NCBI RefSeq assembly: GCF_964195595.1
Contig: NW_027441456.1
Location: 808,127 to 872,126, forward strand
DNA from: Calonectris borealis
Lineage: Eukaryota
Reading direction: 5' to 3'
Length of the DNA stretch: 64,000 bases
Shown: piece by piece, positions 3,616 through 63,410 of the stretch
Layout: each line of letters starts with the position of its first letter
Numbering within the stretch: position 1 is the stretch's first letter
The notes under the pieces: model-generated
Database searches by the model: none
The model's input: the letters and a program-made list of their open reading frames with translations, nothing else
Told to the model about the DNA's origin: nothing
Program-made: the position numbers and the translations under genes

Positions 3616-3660
3616 AACCATTTAGGTTGGAAGGGACTTCTGGAGATCATCTAGTCCAAA
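3616..3660 (-). mobile_element. Short CR1 3'-terminal fragment inside each macrosatellite unit (also at ~9541-9585 and ~15471-15515)
   Basis: 'aggttggaagggacttctggagatcatctagtccaaaccc' is the reverse complement of the canonical CR1 3' end (...ggactagatgatctccagaagtcccttccaacct). Confidence 0.6.
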
Positions 3661-16427: not shown

Positions 16428-16454
16428 ATCGGCATAATTCTCAGAAAACACCAA

Positions 16455-26570: not shown

Positions 26571-26714
<144 letters not shown>

Positions 26715-42300: not shown

Positions 42301-42530
42301 AGCCACCCCAAGGGTGTAGGACCCAGGGCTGGGGAAAGAGGTGCCTGGAGGGGCACCCCTTTCACAAACTCCTCTTGCTCCCTGGGATGAGCAGGGACCC
42401 AGCGCTGCAGGCTCATCTTGATGGCAGCCTCTCCCCATCCCTGCAGGCAGCAGCTGCCCAGCCCCAGCCCCATTGCACGCTGGCGGTGGGGCAACCACGG
42501 AAATGCCCTGAGGAGCTCCGGGTCCCTCAC

Positions 42531-42701
42531 CGGATGCTCTCCAGCTGCCAGGTAGAATTCTTCAGCCCCTTGCAGAGCAGCCGCACCCCAGGATCTCCCA
42601 GGTCCTTAGTACTGATGTCCAGCTGCTGCAGGCTCTGGTTGGTGCCGAGTGCGTCGGCCAGGTCCCCGCAGCTGGCACTGGTGATCTGGCAGCACTGCAG
42701 T
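42531..42701 (-). CDS. NLR LRR exon g: LQCCQITSASCGDLADALGTNQSLQQLDISTKDLGDPGVRLLCKGLKNSTWQLESIR
   Basis: Acceptor 'cctgcag', donor 'gtgaggg'. 171 bp. Confidence 0.8.
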
Positions 42702-42939
42702 CTGCAGGGAAGATGCCCCAGAGAGGAGCTGGGGGTCGTCAGCCCCTGTGCGGGATGCAGCCACCCAGCAGCCCCTCCCCAGCCAACACCCTGCCCACAC
42801 CCGGGACACACCCACCCCTCAGCCAATGAGGGGACAGCAAGGGAGACACTGCCTCCTCCCAGCCCTGCCAACGGCCTCCCCACAGCCAATCCCCTCCCAG
42901 AAGGGACCAAACGGGTCTTCTCAGAGGCGCAAAGGAGAA

Positions 42940-43060
42940 GGACGAGAGCAAATGAGGGAGGGAGGGAGGGAGGAAGGAAGGAAGGAAAAAAGCAAGGAAA
43001 AGAGGAAGACAGGAAAAAAGGAAGGGAGGAGGGAAGGAAGATCCTAGCGCGGTCCAGGAC
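42940..43060. repeat. Purine-rich (GGAA/GGGA)n microsatellite in an LRR intron
   Basis: 'gagggagggagggagggaggaaggaaggaaggaaaaaagcaaggaaaag...'. Confidence 0.9.
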
Positions 43061-43222
43061 TCTCTATCCGCAGGCTCCTCTTGCTCTCTGGGCAGGCAGG
43101 GAGGGAGCATGGGATGGTCAGGGACCCACACTCTCCCTGTCTTTGCAGGCAGCAGCTGCCCAGCCCCAGTCCCATCAAGTGCTGCCCAGGAGAAATGCCC
43201 TGAGCAGCCCTGGGTCCCTCAC

Positions 43223-43393
43223 CGCAGTTTCTCCAGCCGGCAGGCAGGATGCTTCAGCCCCTCGCACAGCAGCCTCATCCCAGCATCTCCCAGGTTGTTT
43301 CCACCAAGATGCAGCTCCCGCAGGCTCTGGTTGGTGCTGAGCACTGCAGCCAGGTCCCCACAGCAGGCGCTGGTGAGCTTGGACCACCACAAC
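43223..43393 (-). CDS. NLR LRR exon f: [57 protein letters not shown]
   Basis: Acceptor 'cctgcag', donor 'gtgaggg'. 171 bp. Confidence 0.8.
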
Positions 43394-43849
43394 CTGCAGG
43401 CACAGCAAATCAGAAATACAACGGATCTTGTCACAGCTGCGATGACAGATGCACACAGACGCACAGGCAGATGCACACACCTCACCAGGCCATTGCCCGA
43501 AAGCAATGGTCACAATCCCAAATCGCACATCCCTTGGCCAGTGAGGGGCTAGCGCTGGAGACAACGCCTGCTCCCAGCCCAGCCCAAGAATATCCACATA
43601 CATTAGGAAGTGCATATTGGGCACGGTGATGGGGAGAGCTCCCACACCCTTCCTGGGGAACCAGCATGGCTGGGCACCTCTCTGAAGTGCTGTTACACAG
43701 ATGCATGCAGGACAGGGAACAAACAAGAGGAACTGGAGGTCTGCGTGCAGTCGCAGGGCTTTAGTAGCTCACTGGAATCACAGAGTCATACCGGGATAGC
43801 TCAGCAGCTAGTGCTGCAATGAGTGGATACAGGCTTTTTTGGAAGGTCA

Positions 43850-45700
43850 TGCTGGGAAAGCAAGATGGGAGACTTGCCCTTTACATGAGAGAGTAGCAGA
43901 TCATAGCCCTGGACTTCAGGAGCACTGACCCTGGCCTGTTGAGAGGTCTGCAAGGAAGAATCCCATGACAGACTTTCCTCCAGAGAAGAGGGGTCAAGGC
44001 GAGCTGGTTGACAATCAAGGATCACCTCCTCCAAGCTCAACAACCATCCATCAAACATGAAAAGGAAGCATACAGGAGGTGGAAGCACAGGAAAGTGGCT
44101 TGGAAAGAATGTAGAGATGCTGTCCAAGTGTGCAGGGATCAGGTTAGGAAAGCCAAAGCCCAACTGGAGTTGAATCTGGTGAGGGATGTGAAGGGCAACA
44201 GGAAAGGCTTCTACAGGTACACGCGCAGCAGAATGAACAATACAGAAGATGTGGGCCTGCTGCTGAACGGGAGTAGGGACCTGGTCACAAAGGACATGCA
44301 GAAGGCTAAAGTACTGAATGCCTTCTTCACCTCAGTCTTCACTGGTAAGACTGGCCTTCAGCAATTCCAGGTCCCTGAGACCAATGGGAGAGTCCAGGGC
44401 AAGGTGGACTTATCCTTGGTGCAGAGAACCAGCATGGGGAATGTTTAAGCAAACGGGACATAGGTAAGTTCATGGACCTGATGGGATGCACCCACAAGGG
44501 CTGAGGGAGCTGACTGGTGTCACTGCAAGGCCACTTTTGATAATCTCTGAAAGGTCATGACGATCAGGGCAGGTTCCTGAAGTCTGGAAGAACACAAATT
44601 TTGCCCTATTTTCAAGACAGACAAGAAAGAGGATCCAGGGAACTACAGGCTGGTCAGTCACCTCCATCCTAGGAAAGGTGATGGAGCAAATAATCCCGGG
44701 AACCACTTCTGAATACAGGAAGGACACGAAGGTGACTGGGAGTACTCTGCATGGATTTGCAAAGGGCAAATCATGTCTGACCAACCTGATAGCTGTCTTT
44801 GGTAAAATGAGTGGCTTGGTGCATGAGGAGAGAGCCTTGGATGTCATTTATCTCAACTTCAGAAGGGATTTTGACCCTGTCTTCTGCAACACCCACTTAG
44901 ACAAACTGATGACTATTGGCTAGAAAAGCAGACAGTGAGATGGATTTAAAACCGGCTGAATGGCTCGACTCAAGGATTGTGGCACTGAGTCTACCTGGAG
45001 GCCAGTCACCAGTGGTGTACCCCAGAGGTCAACACTGGGGCTAATACTGTTGAACATCTTCATTAGACACCGGGACTGAGTGCACCCTCAGCAAGTTTGC
45101 AGATGATACAAAAGTAGAGGAGAGGCTGACAGACCAGGTGAGCATGCAACCATTCAGAGGGATCTGGACAGGCTGGAGAAATGGGCTGACAGGAACCTCA
45201 TGAAGTCCCACAAGGGGAAGTGCAAAGTCTTTCATATTGGGATGAGTAACTCCATACACCAGTAGAGGCTTACTGGCTGGAAAGCAGCTTGGCAGAAAAG
45301 GACCTGCGGGTCCTGGTGGACACCAAGTTGACTATGAGCCAGCAATGTGTCCTTGCCGCAACAAAGGCTGAGGGTATCCCGGGCTGCATTAGGAAGAGTG
45401 TTGCCAGCAGGTGGAGGGAGGTGATCCTTCCCCTCTACTCAGCACTGGAGTGAGGCTCCACCTGGAGTGCTGTGCCCAGTTCTGGGCTCCCCAGTACAAG
45501 GGAGACATGGCCGTACTGGAGAGAGACCAACAAAAGGCCAACGAAGGATGATGAAGGGACTGGAGCACCTCACATACGAGGAAAGGCTGAGAAGGCTGGC
45601 ACTGTTTAGCCTGGAGAAGAGAAGGCTCAGGCTCATCAGGCTCTCTCAGGACCAGAAGGAGCCTGGAGAGCAGATTTGGTCAGGGACTCTGGGAAGTAAA
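43850..45700 (+). mobile_element. CR1 LINE fragment (ORF2 middle/RT region, 3' end missing) within the NLR gene intron between LRR exons e and f
   Basis: Plus-strand ORFs 44008..44448, 44678..44923 (TGSTLHGFAKGKSCLTNLIAVFGKMSGLVHEERALDVIYLNF...) and 45467..45703 (...[25 protein letters not shown]) are CR1 ORF2-like. Confidence 0.8.
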
Positions 45701-47148
45701 TGAAGAGCCCCTTGGGAAGACAGTGCAGGGTGACCACCGCTTGGCATGTGGAGATGGAAGAGGGGAATTGTGGCAGAGAGGGCTGGCACTGTGCACCAGC
45801 GGGTCACTCCACAGCCACATTCACTTTCAGCAGCTCACACAGCCAAGTTCTGCGGCACCAGGAGGAGAAACCCACACCAGCTCCGCCTGGCATCCCGGCA
45901 CCCAGCAGCAGCCCCTGGCAAGCCAGCTGCAGTGATATGGCAGTGAGGCTTCTTGGTGCTAAGCATGGCCAAGGAATGGCTGCCAAGTGATGCGCTCCTG
46001 TCTGCGTGAGTGTCTCGCAGAGAATTGCACTGTCTTTCTGCACGTGTGCCCCCAGCCTTGGCTCCCAGGTACAGCTGCACTGATGGGGTCCGTGCTGCCC
46101 GCAGCCGAGCCTATGGGGAACAGAGATGGGAAGATGGACCTCCTGGTTCAGAGAACCCTTTCTTCTGGGTTGGGTTTTGAAACTTCCTTGGGCAAAGGGA
46201 TCCCAAGAGAGTGTCCTCATTCAGTCCCCTCAGTGGGGACCGTGACAGAGAAGCATGGCTCAGAGTGCGCAGTCCAGCAAGAAGCAATGCTTGGAAACAC
46301 TGAGACGTGTGTTTGGAGATGGCTAACTGTAGCCATGCCCGGGTAGCCAGGGGTCACACAGATCAGCTGACAGAGGACTGTGGCAGTAACGGAAGGAAAT
46401 GGCAGGGGCACTTTCTCTTTGAGCGTTTCCATGAGTCTTTTCACTCCTGTCAGTGGCATGTTTCTGAGATACACCTCTGGATTGGTCCAGTCGTTGTGCC
46501 CCGTTTCACCCTGCGGAGCAGCCTCAGAGGGTGAGAACTGGGTTCCTTTGCGATGAGCTGGCCCAAGAAGTTGTGCTCCGGGAGCACAGCTAATGTGCTC
46601 CAGCTGTTTGTAGGCTTTCGGTTCATAGCACAAGACCAAAGGTAAGCCAAAAGGAAAGCAACCCAAAATGTCCCAAGTGTGAACATCAGGCCCTCTACAT
46701 CAGCAGTTTTGTTCCATGTACCCAATGTCCTGGCTCTTCACTGCTGGCAAATTTGGACATGGCCTTTCAGCAGACCCATTTCCTCAATAATTCCTGCTGG
46801 TTCTTATCCCCAACCATCCTTCCCACTGCTTTGGGCCCATCATGGTGGAGACAAGGAATGGGAATTTCTGGCCATTTTGTTTTGTCCAGTCATCTCAGTG
46901 TGTATGCTAGTGGCCACACTGCTGTAAGGGGGGAAGTAGGGGTGGATGCTGCTGATTAAAAAACTCAAGTGCCATGGGCTATGCCCCACACAGCCTTGAT
47001 ATCCACATGCAGCTTTCAGAGATGACACAAGGCCTGTACTTGAGCCCTGAAATTTGGGATGGCAGCGGGGGGTCAAGAAGCCTGTGGGAAAAAGGCCTGA
47101 TGGGAGAGGGAGTGTTAACAGCACACGAAAATCCTTAGGGAGCCTCAC

Positions 47149-47319
47149 CGCAGTTTCTCCAGCCGGCAGGAGGGATGCTTTAGGCCCTCGCACAGCAGGC
47201 GCACCCCCGCGTCTCCAACGTCATTATCACCCAGGTCCAGCTCCCGCAGACTCGGGCTGGTGCTGAGCAGAGTGGCCAGGTCCCCGCAGCCGGTGCTGGT
47301 GATTTGGCAGTGCTGCAGC
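47149..47319 (-). CDS. NLR LRR exon e: [57 protein letters not shown]
   Basis: Acceptor 'cctgcag', donor 'gtgaggc'. 171 bp. Confidence 0.8.
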
Positions 47320-48096
47320 CTGCAGGGGAGGCACACGAAGAGGAGCTGTGAGGTTGTCACAGCCACCAAGAGACAGACGCACTCACCCACCCACCAGCCT
47401 TCCCAGTTTAATCCCACTAGTCCCCGACCCGGAGCTTCCCCAGTCACTGGGCACTTCCCAAGGCTACAGACAACAAACGGGAATTTCTGGGCACTTTGTT
47501 TTGTTCACAAAGTCATCTCAGCATGCACGCTAGTCATCCCACCACCATAGTGGTAATTGTGCGGCTGTGTTCCCGTGGCTTGGCAGAGTGCTCTAGAGCC
47601 ACAGGAGATGCCCCACGTGGCTCAAACATCCAGGCAGAGCTCGCAGAGACAACACAGGGCCTGCACAAGAGCCCCAACATTCGGCATGGCAGCCAGGGTG
47701 GTGATGTGAGTAAAAGCAAGGACTGGGAGGGAGCTGAGTGGCGCAGCCCAGGATGACTTGGGCCTGGCAGAAGAGGGACTTCCCACAAGGATGTGTCCTC
47801 TGCCCTCCTCCGGTGCCCACTCACGTGGGACTGAACACCCTGGACTCAGCAGACGCCGGGGCTGGGGAAACAGGTGCCTGGAGGTGCACCCCTTTCACGC
47901 ACTCCTCGTGCTCTCCAGGCAGGCAGGCAGGGAGCACAGGATGAGCAGGGACCCAGCGCTGCAGGCTCACCTCGACGGCAGCCTCTTCCCATCCCTGCAG
48001 GCAGCAGCTGCCCAGCCCCAGTCCCAGCCCAGACCCCATCAAGGGCTGCCCACAAGGCAGCCAGGGAAATGCCCCAAGGGGCCCTGGATCCTTCAC

Positions 48097-48267
48097 CCCA
48101 AGATCTCCAGCCGGCAGGTGGGTTGCTTCAGGCCCTCGAACAGCAGCTGCACCCCAGCGTCTCCAAAATCATTATCACCCAGGTCCAGCTCCCGCAAACT
48201 CAGGCTGATGCCGAGCGCAGTGGCCAGGTCCCCGCAGCCAGTGCTGGTCAGCTGGCAATATCGCAAC
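48097..48267 (-). CDS. NLR LRR exon d: [57 protein letters not shown]
   Basis: Acceptor 'cctgcag', donor 'gtgaagg'. 171 bp. Confidence 0.8.
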
Positions 48268-48589
48268 CTGCAGGGGAGACACACCAAAAGGAGCCACAAG
48301 ACCATCACAGCCACCAGGACAGATGTAACCACCCAGCAGCCTCTCAACAGGCCTGTGCCCACATGCCACGGCCAGAAACCCTGCCCACACTCATGGGAGC
48401 CAGTGCTTTACCAAGAGCTTGGTGCTGGAGTGACCGCTTGCTCCAAGCCTGGCTCTCGGCCTCCTCTGAGCCCATTTCTTCCGAGAAGGGAACAAATGGC
48501 TCTTCTCAGTGGTGCGTAATGGAAAGATAAGAGGTAACAGGCACGACTTCCAACAGAGGAAACTAATTAGACTTTAGATCTCTCCATCC

Positions 48590-48790
48590 CTGTTCCCCCA
48601 TGAGTGTGGTCACAGTGGAACAGGACCCCACAGAGGCTGTGGGATCCTCATCCTTTAAAACATTCCTAACCCAGTTGGACAAGACCCTGAACAACAGAAC
48701 CTACGGCAGCCCAGCTTTGAACACGAAGAAGTGCTGGACGACTTCTGGAGGTCCCCTCCTACATAAACTACTTTATGATTCTGGATCTGG
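48590..48790 (+). mobile_element. CR1-like 3'-terminal fragment (second copy at ~53935-54115) embedded in a duplicated intronic segment
   Basis: '...ggacaagaccctgaacaacagaacctacggcagcccagctttgaac...tggaggtcccctcctacataaactactttatgattctggatc' resembles a CR1-subfamily 3' end. Both copies are nearly identical. Confidence 0.5.
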
Positions 48791-49479
48791 GCAAGACCCT
48801 GCTCATTAACTGCCCTTCTGCAAATGGCTGGAGCTGTGGAGACTCTGGAAAACAGGCCTATTCCTAGAATCCTTCAGACCCTGCCTGCACTCAGGACATA
48901 CATGTAGGGATGCACTCCTTCAGCCGAAAATGCAGCAACACTAACTCCCCCTTTGCCAACACAATCCTTGCTGCTGGGCTTGCTCATTCACGGCATTCAT
49001 CCACTCCTCTCTCCAGGACATCCTTCTGCTGCCCAGCTGCTCTCTTCCCGCTTGGAGGGGAGAGCAGGCAAGATCACTTTAATTGTCCAGCCCACCTGCC
49101 TGTGCTTCAGGATCCATTTCCTCCTGCCTTGCCTTCACATATCCTTATGCATCCCTTTAAGCTTCCATGGAATCACTCTCCTGCCCTAGGCCAACAGTGG
49201 GAAGCACCAGCTTAGCACATTTCCTTCCACCTGTTCAATGATCTTGAAAAAGTGAATACTGCTACTCTCCTCCCTTCACAAGTTCTGCCCATTTGTAAAA
49301 GCCCCTCTCTGCTGAGAAGCCTTAGGGCTTCCTCACTTTCTCCTCTGGGAGAAGCCTTTGCCCCTCAATATCAGGTGATGGGCACCAGGGAATCCTGCAA
49401 GTCATCTCAGCTGGCACCGGCCACCTCCATGTGGGATCGGCCAAGCCCCTCCAAGTAGTGCATGGCAGATGTTTTTCTT

Positions 49480-50345
49480 CTCCTAGAGGATCTCATTGAG
49501 CAACTTCTAAACCAGCTTCTGTGTAGAGATGCCTTTTTCCTCAGTGCAAGCAGACATCAAGAACTGTATGAAGTTTAGCAAAGACAAATGCAAGGTCCTG
49601 TACCTGGGACAACATAACCAAAGAGCCCAGTACAGGCAAGCATTGGTGTGACTGGGGAGCAGCCTTGCTGAAAGGGACCTGGGGTCCTGGTAGACAATAA
49701 GCTGAATGTGAGTCAGCAGTACACTGCTGCAGCAATGAAGGCAAATCAGATCCCGGCCTGCAACCGCAGGGGCATGGCTAGGAGAGAGAGAGATGTGATC
49801 ATCCCACTCTCCTTCATGCTTATCAGGCCACACCTGGAGTACTGTGTCCAGTTCTGGTCCCTACAATTCAAGAAAGACGTGGACAGACTGGAGAGAGTCC
49901 AAAGGAGTGCCACAGAGATGATCATGAGATCATGAGAACCTGCCCTATGAGGAAAGACTGAAGGAGTTAGGTCTCTTCTGCCTGGAGAAGAGAAAGCTCA
50001 GGGAGGAACTCATGACAGTATTCCAGAACTTAAAGGGTAGCTACAAAGAGGATGGAGGCGCTCTCTTCACAAGGAGCCACATGGAGAAGACAAGGGGCAA
50101 TGGGTACAAGTTGCACTGGGAGAGGTTTCATCTCAACATAAGAAAGAAATATTTCACAGTAAGAACAATCATTCACTGGAACAACCTTCCCAGGTAGAGT
50201 CCCCATCGCTGGAGGTTTTCAAGATGTGATTGGACAAGTTGCTAGATAATCTCCTCTAGGTTCCCTTTCCCACAAACAGTTGGACCAGATGATCTTTCGA
50301 GGTCCCTTCCAGTCTGGGCTATTCTATGATTCTATGATCATCCAT
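49480..50345 (+). mobile_element. CR1 LINE fragment with intact 3' end
   Basis: ORFs 49708..49935 (...PHLEYCVQFWSLQFKKDVDRLERVQRSATEMI) and 50012..50197 (...YKLHWERFHLNIRKKYFTVRTIIHWNNLPR). 3' end 'ccagatgatctttcgaggtcccttccagtctgggctattctatgattctatgatc'. Confidence 0.9.
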
Positions 50346-51160
50346 TCTGATTCATGCAAGAGATCATTTGAGAAGAGGAGGTGTCCATCGTAGTATTTGA
50401 GGCTGTGTTCTCCTTGGTAGTTTCGTGCTACTGCTCCCATTTCAGTCACAAAGATGCCAGGCTGAATCCCATTGCCCAAAGAGAGGGGTCCAGGGCTGAC
50501 TGAGAGATGGGGTTGACTGGATCGTGATCTGGGGCTTGCAAACATGACACAGAGCCAACAAACCTCAATGCCAGGAAGGCTGTATGAGAAAAGCAACAGC
50601 TTAGAAAGGTAGCTGAGTGACCCAACTCCTGTCAACTCCTGACCATGGTCACAGCGTGCTAACACAGACGTCGTGCACTGGAGGAATTCAGGGACTGACT
50701 CTCCAGCTCAGTTCCACTGGGTGTGTCCCAGAGGAGATCCCTGTGTTTCAGTTGGCCACCCTGAGGCCTGTCCTTTGCAGGAGGAGAGACAGGGTCGCCC
50801 TGGGAGGCGTGCAGCTCTCTGGGGTGCTGCAGAGTCCTACGCTGGAGCAATGAGTTGGTCATGGCAGAAGATCGCCTTTCCGCAAGGATGTGTCCTCTGC
50901 CCTCCCCCGGTGCCCGCTCACCTGGGACTGAACACCCCGGACACAGCAGACACCAGGGCTGGGGAAACAGGTGCCTGGAGGGGCACCCCTCTACACAATC
51001 TTGCTCTCCGGGCAGGCAGGGAGGGAGCACGGGATGAGCAGGGACCCAGCACTGCAGGCTCACTTCCATGGCAGCCTCTCCCCATCCCTGCAGGCAGCAG
51101 CTGCCCAGCTCCATCAAGTGTTGCCCGGGGAAATGCCCCAAGGAGCCCCAGGTCCCTCAC

Positions 51161-51331
51161 CCCACATTCTCCAGCCGGCAGGTGGGATGCTTCAGCCCCT
51201 CGCACAGCAGCCGCACTCCAGCGTCTCCCAGGTCATTAGAACCAACATCCAGCTCCCGCAGGCTCTGGTTGGTGCTGAGCGCAGTGGCCAGGTCCCCACA
51301 GCCGGCACTGGTGAGCCGGCACCACCACAGC
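51161..51331 (-). CDS. NLR LRR exon c: [57 protein letters not shown]
   Basis: Acceptor 'ccacag', donor 'gtgaggg'. 171 bp. Confidence 0.8.
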
Positions 51332-52802
51332 CTGTGGAGAGACACACCAAAGAGCCAGGGGTCATGGCAGCCACTGGGACCAACGCACCCGACCCTGCCC
51401 TCCCCACCCACCCATCCCAGCCGCTCCCTCCAGTCCTACCCACTAGGTGCTGGGCCAGTCGGGGTGGTGGTGATGGAGTGAGGCCCAATCCCAGCTGGCC
51501 ACGGGGCTGCCCTGGCCCGACGCCAGGCAATGCTCCCCATGGTCGCTGGGCCTCTGGCTGCCCCCAGCCCCACGCTCGCCATGCGCCAGGTCCCACAGAA
51601 ACCCCACTGGCAGAGGGACAGCAGGGGGAGAACAGAGGAGGAGACGGATGGAGGTCAGAGGAGAGCCCTGCCCCATGGACTGCTGTGCTGGGGCACAGAC
51701 CTGCAGCCAAATGATGACGTGCTATGTGACAGTGTGATGAAAGACTGAAGGGCTCAGCAGCCCTGGGAGAGTGCTCAGAGCTCTCAGGCATGGGATCAGG
51801 AGGGCAAGAGGGGAAGTGTGGCAGAAGTTAATGGACAGAAGGGACCAGGAGGACACTACAGACACCCAAAAGGCCACAGCAGGATGAGTGATAGACCAGA
51901 TCTTCTCCAAGACCCTGCAGCTTAACAGCCCCAACCTGCAGCTGGAGTACTGTACTGGAGGAGGGGCAGGAGTCTGCATCCATCAGGGTGGAAAGTGGAG
52001 AATCCTAGGATGGTGAAGGCTGGAAGCTTTTAACTTCTGACGCTATGAGGAAGGCTCCTGCTTCACCCCAAGATTTGCAATGCCAGAACAGATTCAGTGT
52101 TGTAGTAGCTGGCAAGGGGCTGGGACCTCCCTTCAATGAAGTACTCAAGGCAGCTAAACTTCAGCCGTGCAACAGAAACAGGAAGAGTGGTGAGTATATA
52201 GCAGCAGATGACTCGCGGCTGTGGGGGATGGATGCTGCCACTGGTCGACCCGACACCGTGGTCTTGGTTGCTGACAAGGGGCTGTTAGTGCACAGCGTGC
52301 TAACACAGACGTCGTGCACTGGAGGAATTCAGGGACTGACTCTCCAGCTCAGTTCCACTGGGTGTGTCCCAGAGGAGATCCCTGTGTTTCAGTTGGCCAC
52401 CCTGAGGCCTGTCCTTTGCAGGAGGAGAGACACGCTCCCCCTGGGAGGCGTGCAGCTCTCTGGGGTGCTGCAGAGTCCTACGCTGGAGCAATGAGTTGAT
52501 CATGGCAGAAGATCGCCTTTCCGCAAGGATGTTGTCCTCTGCCCTCCCCCGGTGCCCGCTCATGTGGGACTGAACACCCCGGACACAGCAGACACCAGGG
52601 CTGGGGAAACAGGTGCCTGGAGGGGCACCCCTCTACACAATCTTGCTCTCCGGGCAGGCAGGGAGGGAGCACGGGATGAGCAGGGACCCAGCACTGCAGG
52701 CTCACTTCCATGGCAGCCTCTCCCCATCCCTGCAGGCAGCAGCTGCCCAGCTCCATCAAGTGTTGCCCGGGGAAATGCCCCAAGGAGCCCCAGGTCCCTC
52801 AC

Positions 52803-52973
52803 CGCAGTTTCTCCAGCCGGCAGGTGGGATGCTTCAGCCCCTCGCACAGCAGCCGCACTCCAGCGTCTCCCAGCTTGTTATCACCGATGTCGAGGTCCCT
52901 CAGTCTCTGGTTGGTGCTGAGCACTGCACCCAGGTCCTCACAGCCAGCGCTGGTTAATTCACACGCCCCCAGC
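52803..52973 (-). CDS. NLR LRR exon b: ...[54 protein letters not shown]
   Basis: Acceptor 'cctgcag', donor 'gtgaggg'. 171 bp, same phase. Confidence 0.8.
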
Positions 52974-54729
52974 CTGCAGGGAATGCACATGGGGAAGACT
53001 CTCAGCATTGCCAGCCCAGCCTGCCACCTTTCCTCCCCTGGCAGCGAGGGCCAAGAAGGGGCCCCCAGGCAGGGAGCCCTGCAGGCAGGGTGCTGGGAAG
53101 AGCTGGGCGAGCGGCCATCAGCTCAGCCCAGGCAGGGTTGCCCCCCTGCCTAGAGCCAGATGCAACACCCATCTCCTCTGACCCTCCAGCTCCCACAGAG
53201 AGACTCTTGCTGGCACAGCAGCCAGACTGTGCTGGCTTCTGGCCCCTGACAGCTGGCTGTGGGCCACCTCATGAGCCCTCATCCATTCGAACCCTCCCCT
53301 CCTCATCTGAGACTTTCCAGTGCTTCCTGCAGCTGGTCAGGAACAGGCTAACACACGGCAAGAAACCCTACCCCTTGGCAGGGCCCTTCCTAGCACAAGC
53401 CCTCCTCCAAACTTTGCTCTGAGTACTGAAATGCCACCCCAATCTACAGCTAACTGAGCCCCACGTATTTAAAGAGTGGTTTTGTTCCTCCCACCTGACA
53501 GGGAGAGTGTTCCCGTCAGAAAGTGGGAGGCTATGGGGAAGGGAAAAAAACCCGCCACGCAGCTCAATGGTGAAATCAAGAGGAAGGAGCCTTCACAATT
53601 CAACAGGAAAGCAGAATGTTTTGATAAATGCATGAAAATCAAAAGAAATAATGGTCGCCCCAATGCAAGAATGCACCATTGGGAACTGGTGCAAGCCCAG
53701 CAGAGGAGCACAAAAATGGCTAGGGGGCTGCGGCAACATGAGATATGAGGAGAGGCCGAGAGCACAGGGTTTGTTGAATCAAGGGAAGAGAAGTCCAAGG
53801 GTGCAATCTTATTGCTGTTACCAGATACTTCCTGGGACAGTGAGTCCTAGGTGCACAGAGGTGCACAGGAAACTAGACTTCAGATCTCTCTGTTCCCTGT
53901 TCCCCGTCCCCCCACGATCAGTGTGGTCAAACAGGGGAACAGGACCCCAGAGAGGCTGTGGGATCCTCATCCTTTAAAACATTCCTAACCCAGTTGGACA
54001 AGACCCTGAACAACAGAACCTACGGCAGCCCAGCTTTGAACATGAAGAAGTGCTGGACGACTTCTGGAGGTCCCCTCCTACATAAACTACTTTATGATTC
54101 TGGATCTGGGCAAGACCCTGCTCATTAACTGCCCTTCTGCAAATGGCTGGAGCTGTGGAGAGTCTGGAAAACAGGCCTATTCCTAGAATCCTTCAGACCC
54201 TGCCTGCACTCAGGACATACATGTAGGGATGCACTCCTTCAGCCGAAAATGCAGCAACACTAACTCCCCCTTTGCCAACACAATCCCTGCTGCTGGGCTT
54301 GCTCATTCATGGCATTCATCCACTCCTCTCTCCAGGACATCCTTCTGCTGCCCAGCTGCTCTCTTCCCACTTGGAGGGGAGAGCAGGCAAGATCACTTTA
54401 ATTGCCCAGCCCACCTGCCTGTGCTTCAGGATCCATTTCCTCCCACATTAGCTCTATGCGACCACCCCAGCTTCAGCCATGTTGCTTGCATGTCCCAGTA
54501 CAACGGTGGGGACCTCAAGCTTAGCAGCACTTTCACCCACCCCACGATCTTGAAAGAGCTGTCTCCCTTTTCAGGAATTCATCCCCTCTCTCAGCTTGCC
54601 TCTCTGATGAGTGCCATTTGGGAAACACCACTTCCATCTCCACGTACCAGTTGGCAGCAGCAGCTGCCCAGCCCCAGCCCCATCGAGTGCTGCCCAGGGA
54701 AACACCCCGAGGAGCTCCAGGTCTCTCAC

Positions 54730-54900
54730 CGCAGTCTCTCCAGCAGGCAGGCTGGATGCTTCAGCCCCTCGCACAGCAGCCGCACCCCAGCGTCTCCCAC
54801 CTGCCTGTCTTGCACGTCCAGCTCCCGCAGACTCTGGCTGGTGCTGAGTGCGGCGGCCAGGTCCCTGCAGCCGCGGCTGGTGAGCTGGCACTGCCACAGG
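54730..54900 (-). CDS. NLR LRR exon a (171 bp): (L)[56 protein letters not shown]
   Basis: Acceptor 'ctctctgcag', donor 'ggtgagagac'. Consensus of NLRP LRR exons (C..L...C..L..LS.N.SL.ELDLS.N.LGD.G...LC..L..P.C.L..L.L). Confidence 0.8.
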
Positions 54901-57900
54901 CTGCAGAGAGATGCACCAAAGAGGGGCTGGGAGTTATCAGAGCCACCGGGACAGATGCAGCCCCCCACCACGCTCTCAGCAGCCTCAGTCTTGCCTATGG
55001 GCTCCGGGGAGGAGGGTAGCTCCAAGGAGCCACGGGGATCAGCAGAACCTGATCCTGGCCCGTGTGTGGCCCCAGCGCGCTATGCCTTGTTTGGGGTAGG
55101 AGTATCCCTCTCCGCCTTCCCCACCCTGGGGAGGGGTTCCTCGGGCTCTGGTTTTCCCCACCCCAAGCTGATGTTCCCAGGGGACCTGGGCCAGGTTGGA
55201 CAACCCCTCTCCCTCAACGCCCCGTAGCAGGGCCTTCAGATACCTTCCTGAGGCTCAAGGGCTGTGAACACAAGTTCTATCAGGTGGAGAAGGACTCGAC
55301 TCCTCCTCTCCAGTCTCTGGTCACATGCAGGAAGCACAAGGGCATTACACACAGGGATTTGGGATTATCTCTCCAGCAGGATTCAGGTGGGCAGAATGAT
55401 CTGCCTGCTTGAGAGAAAGGCTGGCATTTTGGTTGGTTTGTTTCTAAGAAACAGAACAGTTTTCTCACCTGAGTGTCTTCAATTTGCTCCTTGGATTCCC
55501 TACAGCTTGATGGAGCAGGCACAGAGATGACGACTGTGACTGCTCTGTCTGGCATGGCTGCCTGGAGAAGTGAAGAGGAGATGCTCTGCATGAGAGGTGG
55601 CAAGCTGGATTCGTTACTAGTTCACAAGCATCAAAACAGCATGTCAGGGAGCATGACCTCCCACTCAAAACAGGATGGTGTGTATTCCCAGTTCATCGCA
55701 AATCATTTGAAAACCAGATGAGGCTCACACCATGCAATGCTGGGTCAGACATTCAAGACATTGAGAGTAATCACCAATGCTGTGTGTTGTACACAGCTAC
55801 CTTAGCGTGACCGTTCACTCAGCTTTTGGCGTAACATGTGGCTCACACCAAGACCCAATGTGTGCTGGGAGCAGCACCATTAGGTCAAAGCGAGAGCAGC
55901 ATGTTCGCAGAACACGCTGGACATGCATTGTGATGGAGAAGCTAGGTTAGGTAACTATTTCTCTCACAGACACGCGAGTTGGAGAATTTGCAAGATAGGA
56001 GAACATGAGAGGTATTTGAGAAGGTGTAGTGAATCCACAAATTAATGAATTAGAGAATTCACGTGATAGACTAATCTGTACAAAGGGGATTGAGCCTTTG
56101 CTTGATTTATTTTTAACCAGATGAGCTCACGAAATAAATTTTAATTTATAAAGTGTAAATTGTCCTGTAAATTTGAAAGATCCAAATGAACCATGACACT
56201 TACCCATGCAAAGACTTTTGCTATCCACATACAAAGACTATGCTTGATCTGGTCAGGTTTGTAGGAGGGCTTCCCAGGGAAGGCAAGCTGGTGGCTTTCA
56301 TTCTCATCAACAAACCCTTGAGGAGCAGGGCACTGGGCTGCCTGGACACTGGACAGAGCTCTCCAGAAATGTCTCAGCCTCTAAACAGATCCAAAGGTTC
56401 CTCTGGAATTCCAGGAACAGAGATGCTTGCGCGAACTGAAACTGCCCCATGGCAAGAGCGAGCAACCCAGGTCCCTATGCAGGGGATGGGAATGGGAGCA
56501 CATCCACAGCCTTCCCTTGCGCTGCTAATCGTTTCCTTCATAAGATGCAGTTCCTTTCTGAGCATTAATTACCACTGTTGGGAAAAGGGCAACTGCGCTC
56601 CCCACTGAGCACACAGCTCCCACAGGGAAAAACCACACGGACCGAGTCCAGCCGGGTAATGACAGCTGGTGCCATCAGCAGTAGCCCGGAGCCCTGGTAT
56701 GAGGGAAAGAAGCTACCTCAGGGAGTTGGCTATGGGATACAGCCCTTGAGGGGCTGTGTCTGAACAGGTCTGAGAACACTCGGAGCCACAGCTCACCCAG
56801 AGTCCAGGTGGACATGCTGTTTGGGGCTACCCGTTCACCAGCCCCCACGCCTGTTCACTGCAATTTGGACCAGGACAATAAACCTGCTTGCGTCTGACTT
56901 GCTTGTGCTCTCAAGGCATTCCTCACCACTCTTTCCCTGCTGTTGGGGAGAGAACTCTGGGAGCTCTCTTCCCGACACTGATGGGGAAACAGGTGCAGGG
57001 TAGTGCCCAATACTACCATCCCTTCCCAAACTCCTTGCCGGTCCCACTGCTGACCATGGAAGTGCAGCTACAGTGCCGTGGAAGCGGCAGCTGCTGCTGC
57101 TTTTCCAGTTTAACAAATACCTTCCAAGGGAAGAAGATTGTGCTTTGACAGTTGCCCGATGCCACAAGAAAGCCTCGCCACAATGAGAAGGTTGCACCCC
57201 GTAGGGGAGAGGGGATACAGACAAAAACTGCGCTTTTACAGGGGTTATGGTTTTTCCGGTACAGAACTCCTGATAAGCCCTCTGCAGCATGAGCCATCTC
57301 TTGCCCTGTCTCAGGGGTCCAGGCTCATTTTGTGCTGTGCTGAGCATCTCCAGCTCACTCAGGGCACTTGCCCTGGCCATATTGCTGAGAGGCGAACAGA
57401 TCCCTCCTAGCTGGGTACCAGAGCCCTCTGCCTGATCAAGCACAGCACTCTCGTGAGCAGAGTCTCACAAGAGACTCTGCCAGCCTGCAGATAAGAGTCA
57501 AACAGGTCAAGGGAGAAGCAACAGCCCATGGCCATTTAGCGCACGTGCCCCGGGCAAGTGCAGGATTGCAGCTTAACCCCTTCCAAACTCACACAGGATG
57601 GCCCAAGCTTTTTGCTCTCTGCTTCTTTGCTAGGACTCTCTCTGAATGCAAGTCAAACCTTCCAGCCTTTCAGACCAAGGACTACAGGGAAAGGGGTAGT
57701 GAAAAAAAACAGGTTTGCATTTTCAGGAAAAGCAAATGAAAATGCCTTTAAAAATACCTTTTGCAGTGTATCCCCCTACTAGGGCAACGCAGTGGAGATA
57801 AGCGCTTGTATTTCCCGCAGAGAAACACCACTCTGGCTTGGTACTTTCCTGGACCTAGGAGAAGAGGCTTTGTAGACACAGTGGATAGCTAACATAGCTC

Positions 57901-58181: not shown

Positions 58182-59898
58182 AGACATGATCGCTCTGGGG
58201 GTCCTGGAATGACCTTGTTTTCATGGTCTTCCCATGTAAGGAAGCACCATTCAAGATGAAGGGAGTCCAGTCCTTTCCAGGGTTTGACACAGAATGAGAG
58301 AACCCTTTGATCAAATTGGGTCAGGCTGATGTCTCTCAGAACGATCCCCGTAAAATGCTCCAATGCATTGCTCACAAACGTTTCTTCATGACTCTCAAAC
58401 AAACAGTGAAATATATTCAAGTCAAAAACCACCTTATCAGAACTTGAAGCTACTCCTTGGCTTATCTGAGTCCACCTCAGCAAGTCTTCCTCAATTTGAG
58501 GTGAAGTTTCACATCCAGTTATTTCTTTCAGCTTCTTCTTTAGTTCATTGTTTAACAGGCCAAACAGGAATCGCACCACTAATATAAAACGTGTTTTACA
58601 TTCATTGTAGTTTTCAAGCACTACATTTATTCTTTTCTCAGGAGTCTCCGAGTGTCCCCTTGTGTCTTCACTGTCCCCCAGTGCATAGAACAATGCTGCA
58701 AAAAACTCTTGAAAGCTCAGATGAACGAAGCTGTAGACATTCACGCACTCCCTACCTTTTCTTAGAACACTCTCACTCAGAAAAAGGGAGCATAAAACTT
58801 GGTGATTTAAGCCATGTTCCTTGATCTCCTTTTCCTCAAACAGGATCTCCTGCCTCCAGATTCCATCAGCAGCCAGGCAGCAAAGTCTGCCCAGGAACTT
58901 CTTCAGATCCTGCTTCAGATCTTCTTTCCCACACTTGAGTAATGTGGAAAGGTAGGACACATACAGCTCTGTGATTGTTGTAGAAGGCTGTGAAAGATCA
59001 TTCCCTTCATCAAGTTCTTGTTCAAGGGCAGTGCAGACGGTCCAACATATGATGGGTACAAGGCACATGGTAAAAAGAGTGTCATTTCTTTTGACAAAGC
59101 TAATGGCTTTCCTTGCTTTGTCTTCATCCATGAAGAACTTGCGGAAATATTCCTCCCTCTCAGCTTCTGAAAAACCCAGTATCTCTGCAAAACACTCTGT
59201 CTTTAAACACTGCCCCAGACTTTGAAGAGCCGTTGGTCTTGTGGTGATGAGTAAGGAGGACTCCGAAAGGAGAGTCTTCTCCAATAAACTGCTCAGAATA
59301 ATTTCTACGGGCTTCTTTTCCTCAGCACTTGAGCATAATTTACATTTTGGTTGATCCAAGGAAAACCTCAGTTCATCAAAGCCATCAATGATGAACAGAA
59401 GCTTCTGGGGACTAGCCAGGATCTCGTCAAGTGGTGCCCATCGATCAGGACAGCAATCTGACATCAAGTCACCCAGACTCAGCAAGTCCTCTTGCTGAGA
59501 AAGGTTGATCTCTCTACAGCTTATGTAGAAGGCATAGTCAAACTGTGCGTAAAGAGCTCCTTTTGCCCAGTCTAACATGATCTTTCTTGATGTCATTGTC
59601 TTTCCAATACCTGCAGCTCCCACCAGCACAATGATCTGTGGTATTTGCCCTTTTTTATCAGGCTGAAAAAGAGTTTCCACAGTGATGGTACGTTTAGCAC
59701 CTTCTCCTCTGACCTCCTCGTGTCTCTGCCTGAGACGCAGGACCTCATGTTCTTGTTCAGTTGTGTTGTGAGTCTTTGTAACCATCATCAGCTTTGCATA
59801 TCTGCTGCTTAGAGTCACATTCTCACCCAGGCGAGTGTTCACCTCTTTAAATGTACAGAACTCTCTTGCTACATAGTCTCTGTACTTCTGCCTGTAAT
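58182..59898 (-). CDS. NLRP3-like NACHT exon (1717 bp, phase 1 in, phase 2 out). Contains Walker A 'GAAGIGKT', Walker B 'LLFIIDGFDEL', then NACHT-associated/winged-helix region.
   Basis: ORF 58178..59926 (582 aa). Acceptor 'ggtttag' at 59899-59905, donor 'gtaagtattg' at 58181. Close similarity to human NLRP3 (DYRKKYRKYV..., GAAGIGKTILARKMMLDWA, ILFLMDGFDEL, LLITTRPVAL, EILGFSEAKRKEYF, LFTMCFIPLVCWIVCT, SFIHMTFQEFFAA...). Confidence 0.9.
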
Positions 59899-60823
59899 CT
59901 AAACCAATGAGAAACATAAGCACCACCCCCTAATAAAGGCAAACTTCTCATTAGCCCCTCATCATTAAAATTATTCCCACAACACATTCCCAGTACACTG
60001 CAGTTGTTTTACATGTCTGTTTTAGAAGACTTCCAAAGACCTTTACAACGGCTTATGCTGAGCAACCATCTGAGCAGGCCTCTCTACCTTTTATTTAGGG
60101 AAGGTGGGGGGAACCAGCTCCTCTTCACACAGCTCCATTAAGTACCACCAAGTAGGGCAGAAGGAACCCAAGGGGGGAAGAACACCTTCATGGGAAAGAC
60201 TGGTGAGCATTTACTTGGAAAACAGTTGCTAAGCATACTCCTCTTTCTGTAAAGCAGAAGAGGACTTCCACCTTAATTTCTCAAATGGAAGACACATGGT
60301 TCCTCTGGCCCAAATCAGACTTGGAGGGCAGAGGTCCAGTCAACCTCCACTGCAATAAGCAGGTGATACTGTCGGTTGATTAGAGATCACCCATTGTATC
60401 ACCTCTCTTCCTTCAAACTCTGCCAGAAAAGGAGAATCTGAATTGTCCCTTGTATTCCCTAGGTGCGTAGATGGCTCTGCACCACTATCTCCTGGCTGAG
60501 ATAGCTGCACGTAGCATAGGCACTTCTGCTGAAATGGCACATACCGTCAGCTAATACATACCGTTCCAAGACTGGGAGCTGAAACTGCAAAATGAACATG
60601 AGTATTAGCACAGTGGTGTGGCAAAGTCCCACAGACAATGTTCAGAGGCAGTGGATCCCTCTGGTGCCTGCCTAAAATCCCAGAGGATAAAGCAGATTTC
60701 TGCTACTGATATTGCCACACAAGCACTGTGAACACTCCCTGCCCTCTGCAAATCAACCTGCCTTTACATTGGGAAGAAACCCCTCTCCTCCCAGGGAACC
60801 CCAGGTCCCACATGGGGACATTA

Positions 60824-61275
60824 GAATCATAGAATTGTTAAGGTTGGAAAAGACCTCTAAGATCATCGAGTCCAACCGTCAACCCAACACCACCACGCCC
60901 ACTACACCATGTCCCTAAGCGCCTCATCTACACATCTTTTAAATACTTCCAGGGATGGTGACTCCACCACGTCCCTGGGCAGCCTGTTCCAAGGCCTGAC
61001 CACTCTTTCAGTAAAGAAATATCTCCTGATGTCCAATCTAAACCTCCCTTGGCACAACTTGAGGCCATTTCCTCTCATCCTATCGCTGGTTACTTGGGAG
61101 AAGAGACCAACACCCACCTCGCTACAACCTCCTTTCAGGTAGTTGTAGAGCACGATGAGGTCTCCCCTCAGCCTCCTCTTCTCCAGGCTAAACAACCCCA
61201 GTTCCCTCAGCCGCTCCCCATCAGACTTGTGCTCCAGACCCTTCACCAGCTTCGTTGCCCTTCTTCTTTCCCAGA
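60824..61275 (-). mobile_element. CR1 3' fragment, upstream of the NLR NACHT exon
   Basis: Minus-strand ORF 60902..61312 '...[47 protein letters not shown]'. 3' end 'tagaatcatagaattgttaaggttggaaaagacc'. Near-identical to the CR1 at 28571. Confidence 0.9.
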
Positions 61276-61399
61276 GCAGAAGAAATTGCCTGACCTGTGG
61301 GCCACAACCCACCCCACCTGATCAAGAGGGCAGGGCACGTAGCACCCCAGGAAAAAGGGAGGAGTCATGGCAGCAGTCCCCGAAACCGGCATGTAGGGC

Positions 61400-62470
61400 A
61401 TTGGCAGGAGGGTGTCCTTGCAGTTCCTCTCCCCAGCAAGGAGAGCACTGGGCTCCTCTCCTTCTCCCCTTTCCCCGGGACTTGAAATCTGCCCTCACCC
61501 CTCCGAGGAGGAGCTTGCTTTGCACTTTTTCCAGGGAGCAGGCAGAAAAGGAAAGAAGAGGAGTAGTGACCCCCTGCCTCCTCACCTTCCTCCTCCTCCT
61601 GCCCCAGCTGAGCTGCCGTGCCTCCGGCCGACCCCTGCCAGCACCGCATGGCCACCTCCACCCACAGCAACCTCTGGCCCCAGCGCGCGCACGCGCGCTC
61701 AGCAGCCGCGACTGCGGCATCGGTTGCCTCAAACCAACCTCTGGGCAGGCTCTGCGCGCCTCCGTAACCCCTACGTCACAATCCAAACGTGCCCAGGGCG
61801 AGATCCCCCCGCGCTTCCGAGAGGGCCTCGCGGCGGCTCCTCTCTCGCGCCACCGGGCGCTGCTACGGTCGCCCCGGGAACAGGGGCCGGGGTCCTGCCG
61901 AAACGCCCTCCCGAGCCCGCGGCGCCCCCCGAGCCGCTGCCGCCGCCGCTGCCGCGGGCCCGGCGCCGAGGGGCGCGGCCGGGCCGAGCGCGGAGCGGAC
62001 CCGGCCGGGCGGAGCTCAGCCCGCCGCTGCCGCGCCCCCGGCCCCGGGGCTGGCCCGGCCCCGCCCCACCCCGGCCCCGCCCCCCGGCCCCGCGGCCCCG
62101 GCCCCGGTGCGGCTGCGGCAGCCGGGAGCGGCCCCGCCGGAGGGCCCGGCCCCGGGGGAGGGGCGGGCTCCGGTGTGCGACGGGCACGGGCAGCCCCGGG
62201 GGAGGAGGGGGCTCCGGTATGAAACTGCGGTGCGAGCTCCGGCGTGCGGGGGGCGCACGCTTGGCTGGGGGGCGGGGCGGGGGCTCCAGTCCGCAGGTGC
62301 CTGTATTGGGCGGAATCAGCAGGGTTTTGGGAGCGGGGACCTGCAGGGATGACGCTTTGGAGGCGGCGGCGGGCTGCCCCGTGCCGGGCCCGGCCGGCTC
62401 CTGCACGGCTGGCACAGAGCGGTGCCGTGGCTGCGATGGACGGTCCCACGCTCCACTCTGGACGTTGGAG
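61400..62470. promoter_or_regulatory. CpG island (>75% GC) ~1.5 kb upstream of the NLR NACHT exon. Candidate promoter/5' exon region of the NLR gene or of a divergent gene.
   Basis: Dense CpG (gcgcgcacgcgcgctc, gccccggccccggggctggcccggccccgcccc...). All long ORFs here (up to 392 aa, both strands) are Pro/Arg/Gly/Ala low-complexity artefacts. Confidence 0.6.
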
Positions 62471-62606
62471 CTGTTCTAGGGTTTTCCTACAAGAAGACAA
62501 GACCGTCTGAGAGGCACCTGCCCGCCCCCTTCGCCTGCTGCTGGCCCACCACGTACCAGGGCAGGAGTGACCTCAGAAGCACTTACCCATCCACGGCCTT
62601 AGAGCC

Positions 62607-63410
62607 GTAGAATCATGGAATGATTTGGGTTGGAAGGGGTCTTCCAAGATCATCCAGTTACAACACCCTGCCATGGGCAGGGACATCTTCCACTAGATGA
62701 GGTTGCTCAAAGCCCCCGACCAACCTGACCTTGAACACTTCCAGGGGTGGGACATCCACAGCTTCTCTGGGCAACCTGTGCCAGTGTCTCACCACCCTCA
62801 GAGTAAAAAATGTCTTCCTCATATCTAATCTAAATCTACCCTCTTTCAGTTTAAAACTGTTATCCCTTGTCCTGTCACTACAGGCCTTGGTAAAAAGTCT
62901 CTCTCCATCTTTCTTATACGCCTCCTTTATATATGGAAAGACCACAATAAAGTGTCCCTGAAGCCTTCTCTTCTCCAGGCTGAACACCCCCAACTCTCTC
63001 AGCCTTTCTTCACAGGAGAGGTGTAACAGCCCTCAGGATCATTTTCACAGCCTTCACCTGGACTTGCTCTGACAGGTCCATGTCTTTCCTGTGCTGGGGA
63101 CCCCAGAGCTGGATGCAGTGCTCCAGGTGGGTTCTCATGAGAGCGGAGTAGAGGGGCAGAATCATCTCCCTCGACGTGCTGGCCACGCTTCTTTTGATGC
63201 AGCCCAGGATATGACTGGCTTTCTGGGCTGTGAGCGCACATTGCTGGCTCCTGTCCAATTTGTCACCTACCGGTACCCCCAAGTCCTTCTCGGCAGGGCT
63301 GCTCTCAATCCCTTCATCCCCCAGTCTGTGCTGGTACTGGGGATTGCCCCAACCCGGGTGCAGGACCTTGCACTTGGCCTTGTTGCACTTCTTTCTTGCC
63401 TGCCATGTAC
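62607..63410 (-). mobile_element. CR1 fragment flanked by a 27-bp direct repeat
   Basis: Minus-strand ORFs 62658..62993 (...RFRLDMRKTFFTLRVVRHWHRLPREAVDVPPLEVFKVRL) and 63010..63282 (...[23 protein letters not shown]). 'gggcaggagtgacctcagaagcac' occurs at 62556-62580 and 63414-63437. Confidence 0.85.

Follow-up and report, generated by a model that had tools for sequence, protein, structure and literature searches.

The stretch analysed here, referred to as the window throughout, comprises 64,000 nucleotides (nt) of the Calonectris borealis genome (contig NW_027441456.1, positions 808,127 to 872,126). On its minus strand, between 42.5 and 59.9 kb, it carries an avian NLRP3/12-like gene made up of a NACHT exon, a 93-nt linker exon and seven leucine-rich repeat (LRR) exons, e1 to e7. 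Comparison of these exons and their introns with one another and with related loci indicates that they probably form an ancient LRR exon array in which intragenic gene conversion or partial copying has occasionally taken place between cassettes, that is, between exons with their flanking introns. An earlier sequence-only reading had instead proposed that whole cassettes were recently duplicated and that expansion was in progress. That proposal is largely refuted for the window, since the best exon pair is only ~85% identical and e2 and e3 map to different exons of the Podargus strigoides orthologue.

All seven LRR exons are exactly 171 nt long, with an AG acceptor, a GT donor, 57 open codons and one common phase, so that gain, loss or skipping of any one of them leaves the frame intact. 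Each encodes a pair of repeats of 28 and 29 residues, and their concatenated translation matches Pfam LRR_6 (5.5e-41), which identifies a ribonuclease inhibitor (RI)-type LRR array of phase-symmetric 171-nt exons. The sequence-only reading was right in describing NLR-type LRR exons arranged as exon-plus-intron cassettes. In gene order the exons are:

54730..54900, minus strand: LRR exon e1, 171 nt, AG/GT sites and open frame; without a Podargus counterpart, the region being lost in Podargus
52803..52973, minus strand: LRR exon e2, 171 nt, mosaic; 5′ part of Podargus-e1 type, 3′ part of e3 type
51161..51331, minus strand: LRR exon e3, 171 nt; 87.1% identical to Podargus e2, upstream intron collinear with Podargus
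48097..48267, minus strand: LRR exon e4, 171 nt, AG/GT sites and open frame
47149..47319, minus strand: LRR exon e5, 171 nt; 84.8% identical to Podargus e3, upstream intron orthologous; without the downstream intronic element described below
43223..43393, minus strand: LRR exon e6, 171 nt, AG/GT sites and open frame; partial downstream element
42531..42701, minus strand: LRR exon e7, 171 nt; orthologue of Podargus e4 by its flanks; full downstream element

Divergence among these exons marks them as old paralogues and not recent copies. Pairwise identity ranges from 71 to 85%, the most similar pair reaching 84.8%; e2 and e3 are 81% identical overall, e6 and e7 ~75-78%, and the e3 and e4 cassettes differ by 19.5%, as much as orthologues do. 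The sequence-only reading had described LRR exons in pairs with near-identical flanks and had listed four repeated segments, (a) to (d). Self-BLAST confirmed pairs (a) and (d), and among the exon pairs only (a), which joins e2 and e3, has near-identical flanks. The spacing of ~948 bp given for pair (b), e4 and e5, was correct, but the match (85.9% over 191 bp) is limited to the exon and ~27 bp of acceptor flank, and the downstream flanks are unrelated. Likewise, e6 and e7, pair (c), do lie ~692 bp apart, but at 77.8% identity they include no near-identical copy. Some flanks are far more similar than the exons, as had been noticed; most cassette flanks, however, are as diverged as the exons or more, the outcome that the same reading had named as the mark of ancient duplication.

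To place the exons in a comparative frame, we used loci of Podargus strigoides (L001), Limosa (L002), Himantopus himantopus (L003) and Nipponia (L004), together with a paralogous NLRP gene of Tyto alba. Podargus has four LRR exons, with cassette periods of 525-812 bp, and these pair with window exons as e2 with e1 (86.5%), e3 with e2 (87.1%), e5 with e3 (84.8%) and e7 with e4, the last by its flanks (window 42524-43126 aligns with L001 16618-16040). Since e2 and e3 each pair with a different Podargus exon, both predate the Podargus split. The introns add further correspondences: the intron after Podargus e2 matches the window downstream of e4 (47795-48020) at 85.9% identity, the two remaining collinear as far as e5, and the intron downstream of e6 is orthologous to that after Podargus e3 (98 versus 17 informative sites).

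Against this background of old divergence stand two recent tracts of near-identity, the first of which, tract (a), ends inside coding sequence:

50655..51231, strand not assigned: recent tract (a), copy 1; the 3′ ~70 nt of e3 and 506 nt of the intron that follows it
52296..52873, strand not assigned: recent tract (a), copy 2; the intron after e2 plus the 3′ ~70 nt of e2

In self-BLAST, pair (a) aligned 50650-51312 with 52291-52954 at 95.5% identity over 664 bp, with an offset of 1641-1642. The match, its ~1642 bp period and the antisense open reading frame (ORF) reported at both places were therefore real, but only ~577 bp, about one third of the period, are near-identical. Windowed global alignment of this core found 10 differences in 577 columns (~98.5% identity). 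On the low-coordinate, gene-downstream side similarity ends abruptly at 50650/52291, and the sequences beyond are no more alike than shuffles (z = -0.4). On the high-coordinate side the tract ends within the exon at about position 100, identity beyond 51232 falling to the level of exon paralogues: the 5′ ~100 nt of e2 and e3 are 68-76% identical, and the introns upstream of them are unrelated (z = -0.1). Neither the window nor five related loci (~140 kb) contained another copy of tract (a).

Three-way comparison of site patterns showed that e2 has a mosaic ancestry with a switch at about exon position 100. Informative sites upstream of the exon grouped e2 with Podargus e1 in 84 cases and with e3 in 9. 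Over the 5′ half of the exon the corresponding counts were 15 and 7, and downstream of it they were 2 and 135. Positions 1-98 and the upstream intron are accordingly of Podargus-e1 type, and positions 101-165 with the downstream intron are of e3 type, the exonic part being identical to e3. On these patterns e2 is a chimera: a later event gave e2 and e3 a common last ~70 nt of exon and 506 nt of intron. The effect on the protein is confined to two residues (HPSCQ to HPTCR). Transfer was probably from e3 into e2, a direction only weakly polarised, because one informative exon site agrees with it and the intron sequence concerned is absent from Podargus intron 1; relative to that intron, window positions 51655-52717 (~1.06 kb) are extra sequence.

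The second tract lies wholly within introns, its copies ~5.3 kb apart:

48620..49124, strand not assigned: recent tract (d), copy 1, in the e3-e4 intron
53940..54443, strand not assigned: recent tract (d), copy 2, in the e1-e2 intron

Here the block match claimed from the sequence was upheld, at 97.6% over 534 bp in self-BLAST (48595-49124 versus 53910-54443), and the core differs at 7-8 of 505 columns (~98.5%). Weaker yet significant homology extends on both sides of it (z 7.9 and 14.9). High identity embedded in older, lower-identity paralogous sequence was thus found on both sides of tract (d), and on the exon side only of tract (a). The tract starts with an old CR1-like 3′ tail, followed by ~340 bp of shared non-CR1 sequence. 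Because the shared sequence continues past that tail, the repeated unit is host sequence holding an old insertion. Both copies match a single Limosa site in the same gene (L002 29703-29803, ~80%), and searches of the window and the five related loci returned no further copy. Tract (d) is thus a recent stretch of high identity superimposed on a duplication that took place earlier within the gene. One larger duplication producing both tracts was considered and rejected, as the order d2, a2, a1, d1 and the offsets of 1642 and 5319 bp fit no single tandem event.

Tracts of this kind recur in other bird species and are not peculiar to the window genome. In Himantopus (L003 19992-33231) we found nine 171-nt LRR exons, of which exons 6 and 8 encode almost the same peptide, and three tracts whose ends lie inside or beside exons: 20752-21725 versus 29361-30334 (97.5%, 974 bp, taking in most of an exon), 26206-26798 versus 30507-31097 (99.0%, 593 bp) and a third at 90.7%. 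The 3′ 71 nt of the Limosa exons are 94.8% identical to each other and 78.9% identical to window exons, and the five repeat units of Ciconia are identical over their last 26 residues, in the C-terminal half. Paralogues were therefore more alike than orthologues in Limosa, Ciconia and Himantopus; the window shows this excess only weakly beyond its two tracts (78.1% internally versus 77.7% to Podargus). Podargus e3 changes affinity cleanly across the exon, its upstream flank being of e5 type (82:9) and its downstream flank of e6 type (17:98).

LRR exon number does vary between species, with four in Podargus, at least five in Limosa, five in Ciconia, seven in the window and nine in Himantopus; the Nipponia locus has no LRR exons within its contig. 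The Limosa locus has gaps (2100 N) and, being too diverged and gapped, was set aside for polarising gain versus loss of e4 and e6. Separately, a 1-nt deletion in the fourth LRR exon of Podargus (L001 16442-16612) shifts the frame and brings in a stop; the donor of this exon reads GG, and the element downstream of it is degraded in its distal half. The Podargus gene, which may be decaying, has lost further parts as well: the NACHT exon's end, the linker and the counterpart of e1.

Divergence within introns gives an estimate of when the two tracts arose. Both show 7 differences in ~505 nt (~1.4%), and alignable introns of the window and Podargus differ by ~17-20%, which would make the tracts roughly 1/15 as old as the Podargus split. 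If that split is placed in the early Neoaves radiation, their age would be a few million years.

We propose the following history. Ancient head-to-tail duplication of a ~0.5-0.6 kb cassette, consisting of ~70 nt of upstream intron, a 171-nt exon and ~200-250 nt of downstream intron, would have produced the array. Non-allelic homologous exchange, by gene conversion and unequal crossing-over, would since have kept it partly homogeneous and shifted exon number between species. The two latest exchanges, each of ~0.5 kb and at ~1.4% divergence, would have placed the e3 version over the 3′ end of e2 and its intron and, in the other case, acted between introns 5.3 kb apart. What travels with most cassettes is the portion of the ancestral intron that is preserved best. 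Gene conversion or partial copying is favoured because the 0.58-kb tract of near-identity ends inside an exon, and we infer conversion in preference to more complex duplicative insertion.

Several observations weigh against this history or complicate it. Within the otherwise identical tract (a), the final 6 nt of the exon contain a cluster of three mismatches, so that the tract would be patchy or made by two events. The direction of transfer hangs on a single informative exon site. The distal end of the tract abuts sequence without detectable homology (z = -0.4), an ending not expected if conversion had simply acted between homologous flanks; later indels, or a templated partial duplication or insertion, would have to be assumed. 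Adjoining copy 2 of the tract in the e2-e3 intron, positions 51655-52290 (~640 bp) had no match in the window, Podargus, Limosa or Himantopus. Downstream of e3 and e4, site patterns against Podargus e2 split evenly, at 13:13; Podargus may have lost e4- and e6-like exons by unequal crossing-over, or the window lineage may have gained them. Finally, the array is read from the assembled sequence.

This last point bears on the possibility that the assembler made or misplaced the near-identical tracts through false duplication or collapse. Repeats of 0.5 kb at 98.5% identity within an array of 171-nt exons are hard for short-read assemblers, and the region is rich in repeats, one of 5.9 kb within the window reaching 99% identity. 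We nevertheless consider such an artefact improbable: the window has no N gaps, the copies differ at 7-10 scattered positions (1.4-1.7%) between unique, non-homologous outer flanks, the flanks follow one another collinearly with those of Podargus, none of the seven exons has lost its exact length, its splice sites or its frame, and the independent Himantopus assembly contains tracts of the same kind. Recent tandem duplication of whole cassettes, with e2/e3, e4/e5 and e6/e7 as young pairs, would account for a segment repeated at a 1641-1642-bp offset with 95.5% identity and for the difference in exon number between species, and the Himantopus 974-bp tract at 97.5%, with most of an exon in it, shows that copying on the scale of a cassette occurs in this gene. 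It is just as improbable for the window. Only 577 of 1642 bp are near-identical in pair (a) and the remainder of the period is unrelated, so pair (a) is not a tandem cassette duplication; e2 and e3, 81% identical, correspond to different Podargus exons and each has its own upstream intron; e4 and e5 have a common flank of ~27 bp; and e6 and e7 are 75-78% identical. Neither near-identity over a whole period nor a single outgroup cassette for both copies was found.

The chance is smaller still that the repeated blocks are copies of a transposable element inserted independently in several introns. Block (d) does start with a CR1-like 3′ tail, and CR1-like fragments are abundant in the introns. 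A retroposed CR1 would end at its tail, however, whereas in (d) the tail stands at the 5′ end and ~340 bp of non-CR1 sequence follow; lower-level homology continues beyond the block, and its two copies match one and the same Limosa site in the same gene. Tract (a), for its part, takes in part of a coding exon. With no further copy of (a) or (d) in the window or the ~140 kb of related loci, neither dispersed copies nor a unit bounded by termini was observed. Ancient duplication followed by occasional exchange between cassettes thus remains the reading that we prefer.

The introns downstream of the LRR exons contain a further repeated feature, an element that in full length measures ~200-250 nt. 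The sequence-only reading had placed it after every LRR exon, which proved too broad: the element is full after four of the seven (e2, e3, e4 and e7), partial after two and absent after e5, where the hidden Markov model (HMM) profile gave no match. Pattern searches located a distal 26-mer after four exons and a proximal 24-mer after five, none being expected by chance. The copies in the window are:

52589..52780, minus strand: element after e2, beginning 23 nt past the exon (nhmmer E = 1e-46)
50947..51138, minus strand: element after e3, where the 26-mer and 24-mer patterns fall (nhmmer E = 1e-46)
47850..48074, minus strand: element after e4 (nhmmer E = 7e-56)
42318..42508, minus strand: element after e7 (nhmmer E = 8e-50)
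43057..43200, minus strand: partial element after e6, with an internal deletion (nhmmer E = 2e-24)
54652..54706, minus strand: proximal remnant after e1, ~55 nt (nhmmer E = 2e-9; HMM positions 3-68 only)

A profile built from nine copies of four species was run with nhmmer over ~187 kb on both strands. All 20 matches (E <= 0.0011) began 18-29 nt past an LRR exon in the sense of the gene, at five loci, and none elsewhere, so that the element is conserved in a fixed position next to the exon. It follows all three detected LRR exons of the paralogous Tyto alba NLRP gene (E = 4e-11, 7e-8 and 6e-7) and is thus old. The element therefore represents the surviving bulk of an ancestral short intron, a reading with which the Podargus periods of 525-812 bp agree. 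A core of ~80 nt has a mean identity of 79-85% across window e3, e4 and e7, Podargus e2 and Limosa e2, compared with 38-50% for neighbouring intron; it equals the best-conserved part of the exon, a contrast inflated by the choice of the core after the alignment had been seen. The 18-mer CTGGGTCCCTGCTCATCC (<=3 mismatches) occurs only 94-141 nt past LRR donors, in four species, and the first 150 nt past the donor hold 6-11 GGG runs after six of the seven exons and 1 after e5. An (AGGA)n-like, purine-rich microsatellite also lies in the e6-e7 intron at 42955-43040; the corresponding place in the orthologous intron of Podargus is taken by a long, C/T-rich run of low complexity.

Three candidate identities for the element were rejected. 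It is not a known or structured RNA such as a small nucleolar RNA (snoRNA) or microRNA (miRNA): Rfam returned no match in or near it at E <= 1, and three weak, below-threshold miRNA-like matches fell elsewhere in 40-62 kb; six folds were no stabler than shuffles (z -0.12 to +2.56). Nor is it a degenerate copy of the exon 3′ end, local alignment being no better than for shuffles (z -0.3 to 2.5). In window e2, e3 and e4 and in Podargus e2 and e4, an acceptor-like CAG/G and a donor-like G/GTGAG flank 24 in-frame nt; a coding micro-exon of 24 nt was discarded, as the donor is lost in the window e7 and Himantopus copies and the acceptor in the Limosa copy.

Selection might also have kept the element as a cis-acting splicing signal, either a G-run-rich enhancer or a decoy acceptor and donor ~55-140 nt past the donor, a tentative idea that we think less probable than its converse. 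Conservation of the ~80-nt core at the level of the best part of the exon, confinement of the 18-mer to one interval past LRR donors in four species, detection in the owl paralogue and abundant G-runs after six of seven donors all speak for it, and NLRP3 LRR exons are known to be alternatively spliced (PMC6642158). Yet e5 lacks the element and e1 and e6 have only part of it, while all three exons are intact; the GTGAG and CAG sites are not conserved in the Himantopus or Limosa copies; and the orthologous introns of Limosa and Himantopus are uniformly similar, with no island of conservation. The post hoc choice of the core and the lack of a stable fold or Rfam match count on the same side. Conversion tracts, moreover, cover exactly the element region, and alone can keep copies alike within a genome. 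A broader proposal, which we regard as unlikely, is that each LRR exon carries a portable downstream module of ~200 nt, conserved across bird orders and NLRP paralogues, that would make the cassette a self-sufficient splicing unit. If so, the module would explain why exons can be copied, lost or swapped without breaking splicing and might set LRR exon inclusion, and the conversion tracts, always including it, would maintain function beyond homogenising sequence.

The remaining coding exons of the gene lie upstream of the array:

58182..59898, minus strand: NACHT exon (FISNA-NACHT-WH-HD2), a 582-residue ORF with Pfam matches; ends read from the sequence
55469..55561, minus strand: linker exon between the NACHT and LRR exons, 93 nt, AG/GT sites, phase compatible with its neighbours

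Pfam identified in the 582-residue ORF a NACHT NTPase module with its associated helical domains (FISNA 1.5e-7, NACHT 2e-47, NOD2_WH 5e-17, NLRC4_HD2 8e-26). Its best protein matches are avian and labelled NLRP3 or NLRP12-like, with 79% identity to Podargus strigoides and 68-70% to proteins of Fregata, Nycticryphes, Limosa, Charadrius, Ciconia and Himantopus; a second avian NLRP group stands at ~52-54%. All protein matches of the window are avian or reptilian. The linker exon was found by tblastn with residues 683-710 of Ciconia P0006, which yields '...LCLLHQAVGNPRSKLKTLR', and the reading frame is unbroken from the NACHT exon through the linker to e1-e7. No terminal exon with a stop codon was identified downstream of e7 within the window. 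The window is collinear with the Podargus locus, where an acyl-CoA dehydrogenase gene follows the orthologue. A weak mir-81-like hairpin match in the NACHT-linker intron (55825-55913, minus strand) scores 27.6 bits where the gathering score is 54.5 (E = 0.018), and probably arose by chance.

With the pyrin regions of four orthologues as queries, tblastn found no pyrin exon in the 4 kb by which the window extends upstream of the NACHT exon; such an exon may sit outside the window or be lost. The Podargus gene model is also without a pyrin domain and begins with a disordered, GC-rich N-terminus. Where the pyrin exon would be expected, window positions 60000-64000, and especially 61300-62500, are very GC-rich and hold long Pro/Arg/Gly-rich ORFs on both strands. 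This GC-rich stretch recalls the replacement of pyrin reported for songbird and falcon NLRP3 (PMC11258412).

Other repeats were recorded in and around the gene. Two intronic regions contain fragments of a long interspersed nuclear element (LINE):

49520..50340 (approximate), plus strand: CR1-like LINE fragment in the e3-e4 intron, matching dispersed copies in the window and L001
43600..45700 (approximate), plus strand: CR1-like LINE fragments over most of the 3.75-kb e5-e6 intron, with dispersed matches in L001, L002 and L003

We take these to be CR1 on account of an ORF2 C-terminus and a 'attctatgattct' tail; Pfam gave no match for the CR1-like ORF fragments tried. Two further CR1-like fragments 32 kb apart (28571-29009 and 60823-61261) are 95.4% identical over 439 bp, which suggests a relatively young LINE subfamily in this genome. 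The start of the window (1-16428) consists of ~2.8 head-to-tail copies of a ~5.93 kb unit, 98.4-99.2% identical to one another. Each unit carries the C/D-box snoRNA SNORD45, which scores above the Rfam gathering threshold; the snoRNA copies lie on the minus strand at 635-719, 6563-6647, 12490-12574 and 15999-16083. Either part of a snoRNA host gene underwent segmental duplication in tandem very recently, or the repeat is an assembly artefact; everything in the NLRP array is much older.

The architecture of the array has a close parallel in RNH1, the ribonuclease inhibitor, which Haigis, Haag and Raines reportedly traced in 2002 to duplication of a 57-residue exon module. Both share a 57-codon exon unit and an inferred growth by tandem exon duplication. 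The repeat number of RNH1, however, is essentially fixed among mammals, whereas the LRR exon number of the window gene varies from 4 to 9 among bird orders and exchange would be ongoing. In human NLRs the LRR exons show strict 171-bp modularity, with the border at a fixed place in the repeat, and this modularity has been linked to alternative splicing (PMC6642158, Hoss et al. 2019). The window gene resembles mammalian NLRP3 and other NLRs with RI-type LRRs in its 171-nt exons, 28 + 29 residues, border and single phase (PMC6642158). It differs from that system in being an avian NLRP3/12-like paralogue with no pyrin exon found in the window, and it adds recent exchange between cassettes and a shared intronic module, which PMC6642158 does not address.

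Parts of vertebrate NLR genes are known to undergo gene conversion, for example in the zebrafish NLR-B30.2 family (PMC4852459). As in that family and in the LRR regions of plant R genes, exchange in the window gene has left short tracts covering part of a unit, mosaics, and copies more alike within a genome than between orthologues; there it takes place mostly between separate genes, here between the exons and introns of a single gene. Reptiles have multiple NLRP3/12-like copies, and birds have retained NLRP3 (PMC11258412).

The window gene therefore adds a further case to a process already known: the modularity of LRR exons, their duplication and NLR gene conversion were all established, and knowledge of the mechanism is unchanged. 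What is specific to it is the base-level mosaic of e2 and an intronic module that accompanies the exon in different species and paralogues. In genome annotation, long-read support is needed for gene models and exon counts at such loci. For bird immunology, the locus flags an NLRP3/12-like paralogue with lineage-specific LRR architecture. It also illustrates, base by base, the remodelling of the sensor surface of a vertebrate NLR, in which exon number can drift (from 4 to 9) because the exon array is phase-symmetric, and short exchange tracts give rise to mosaic exons.

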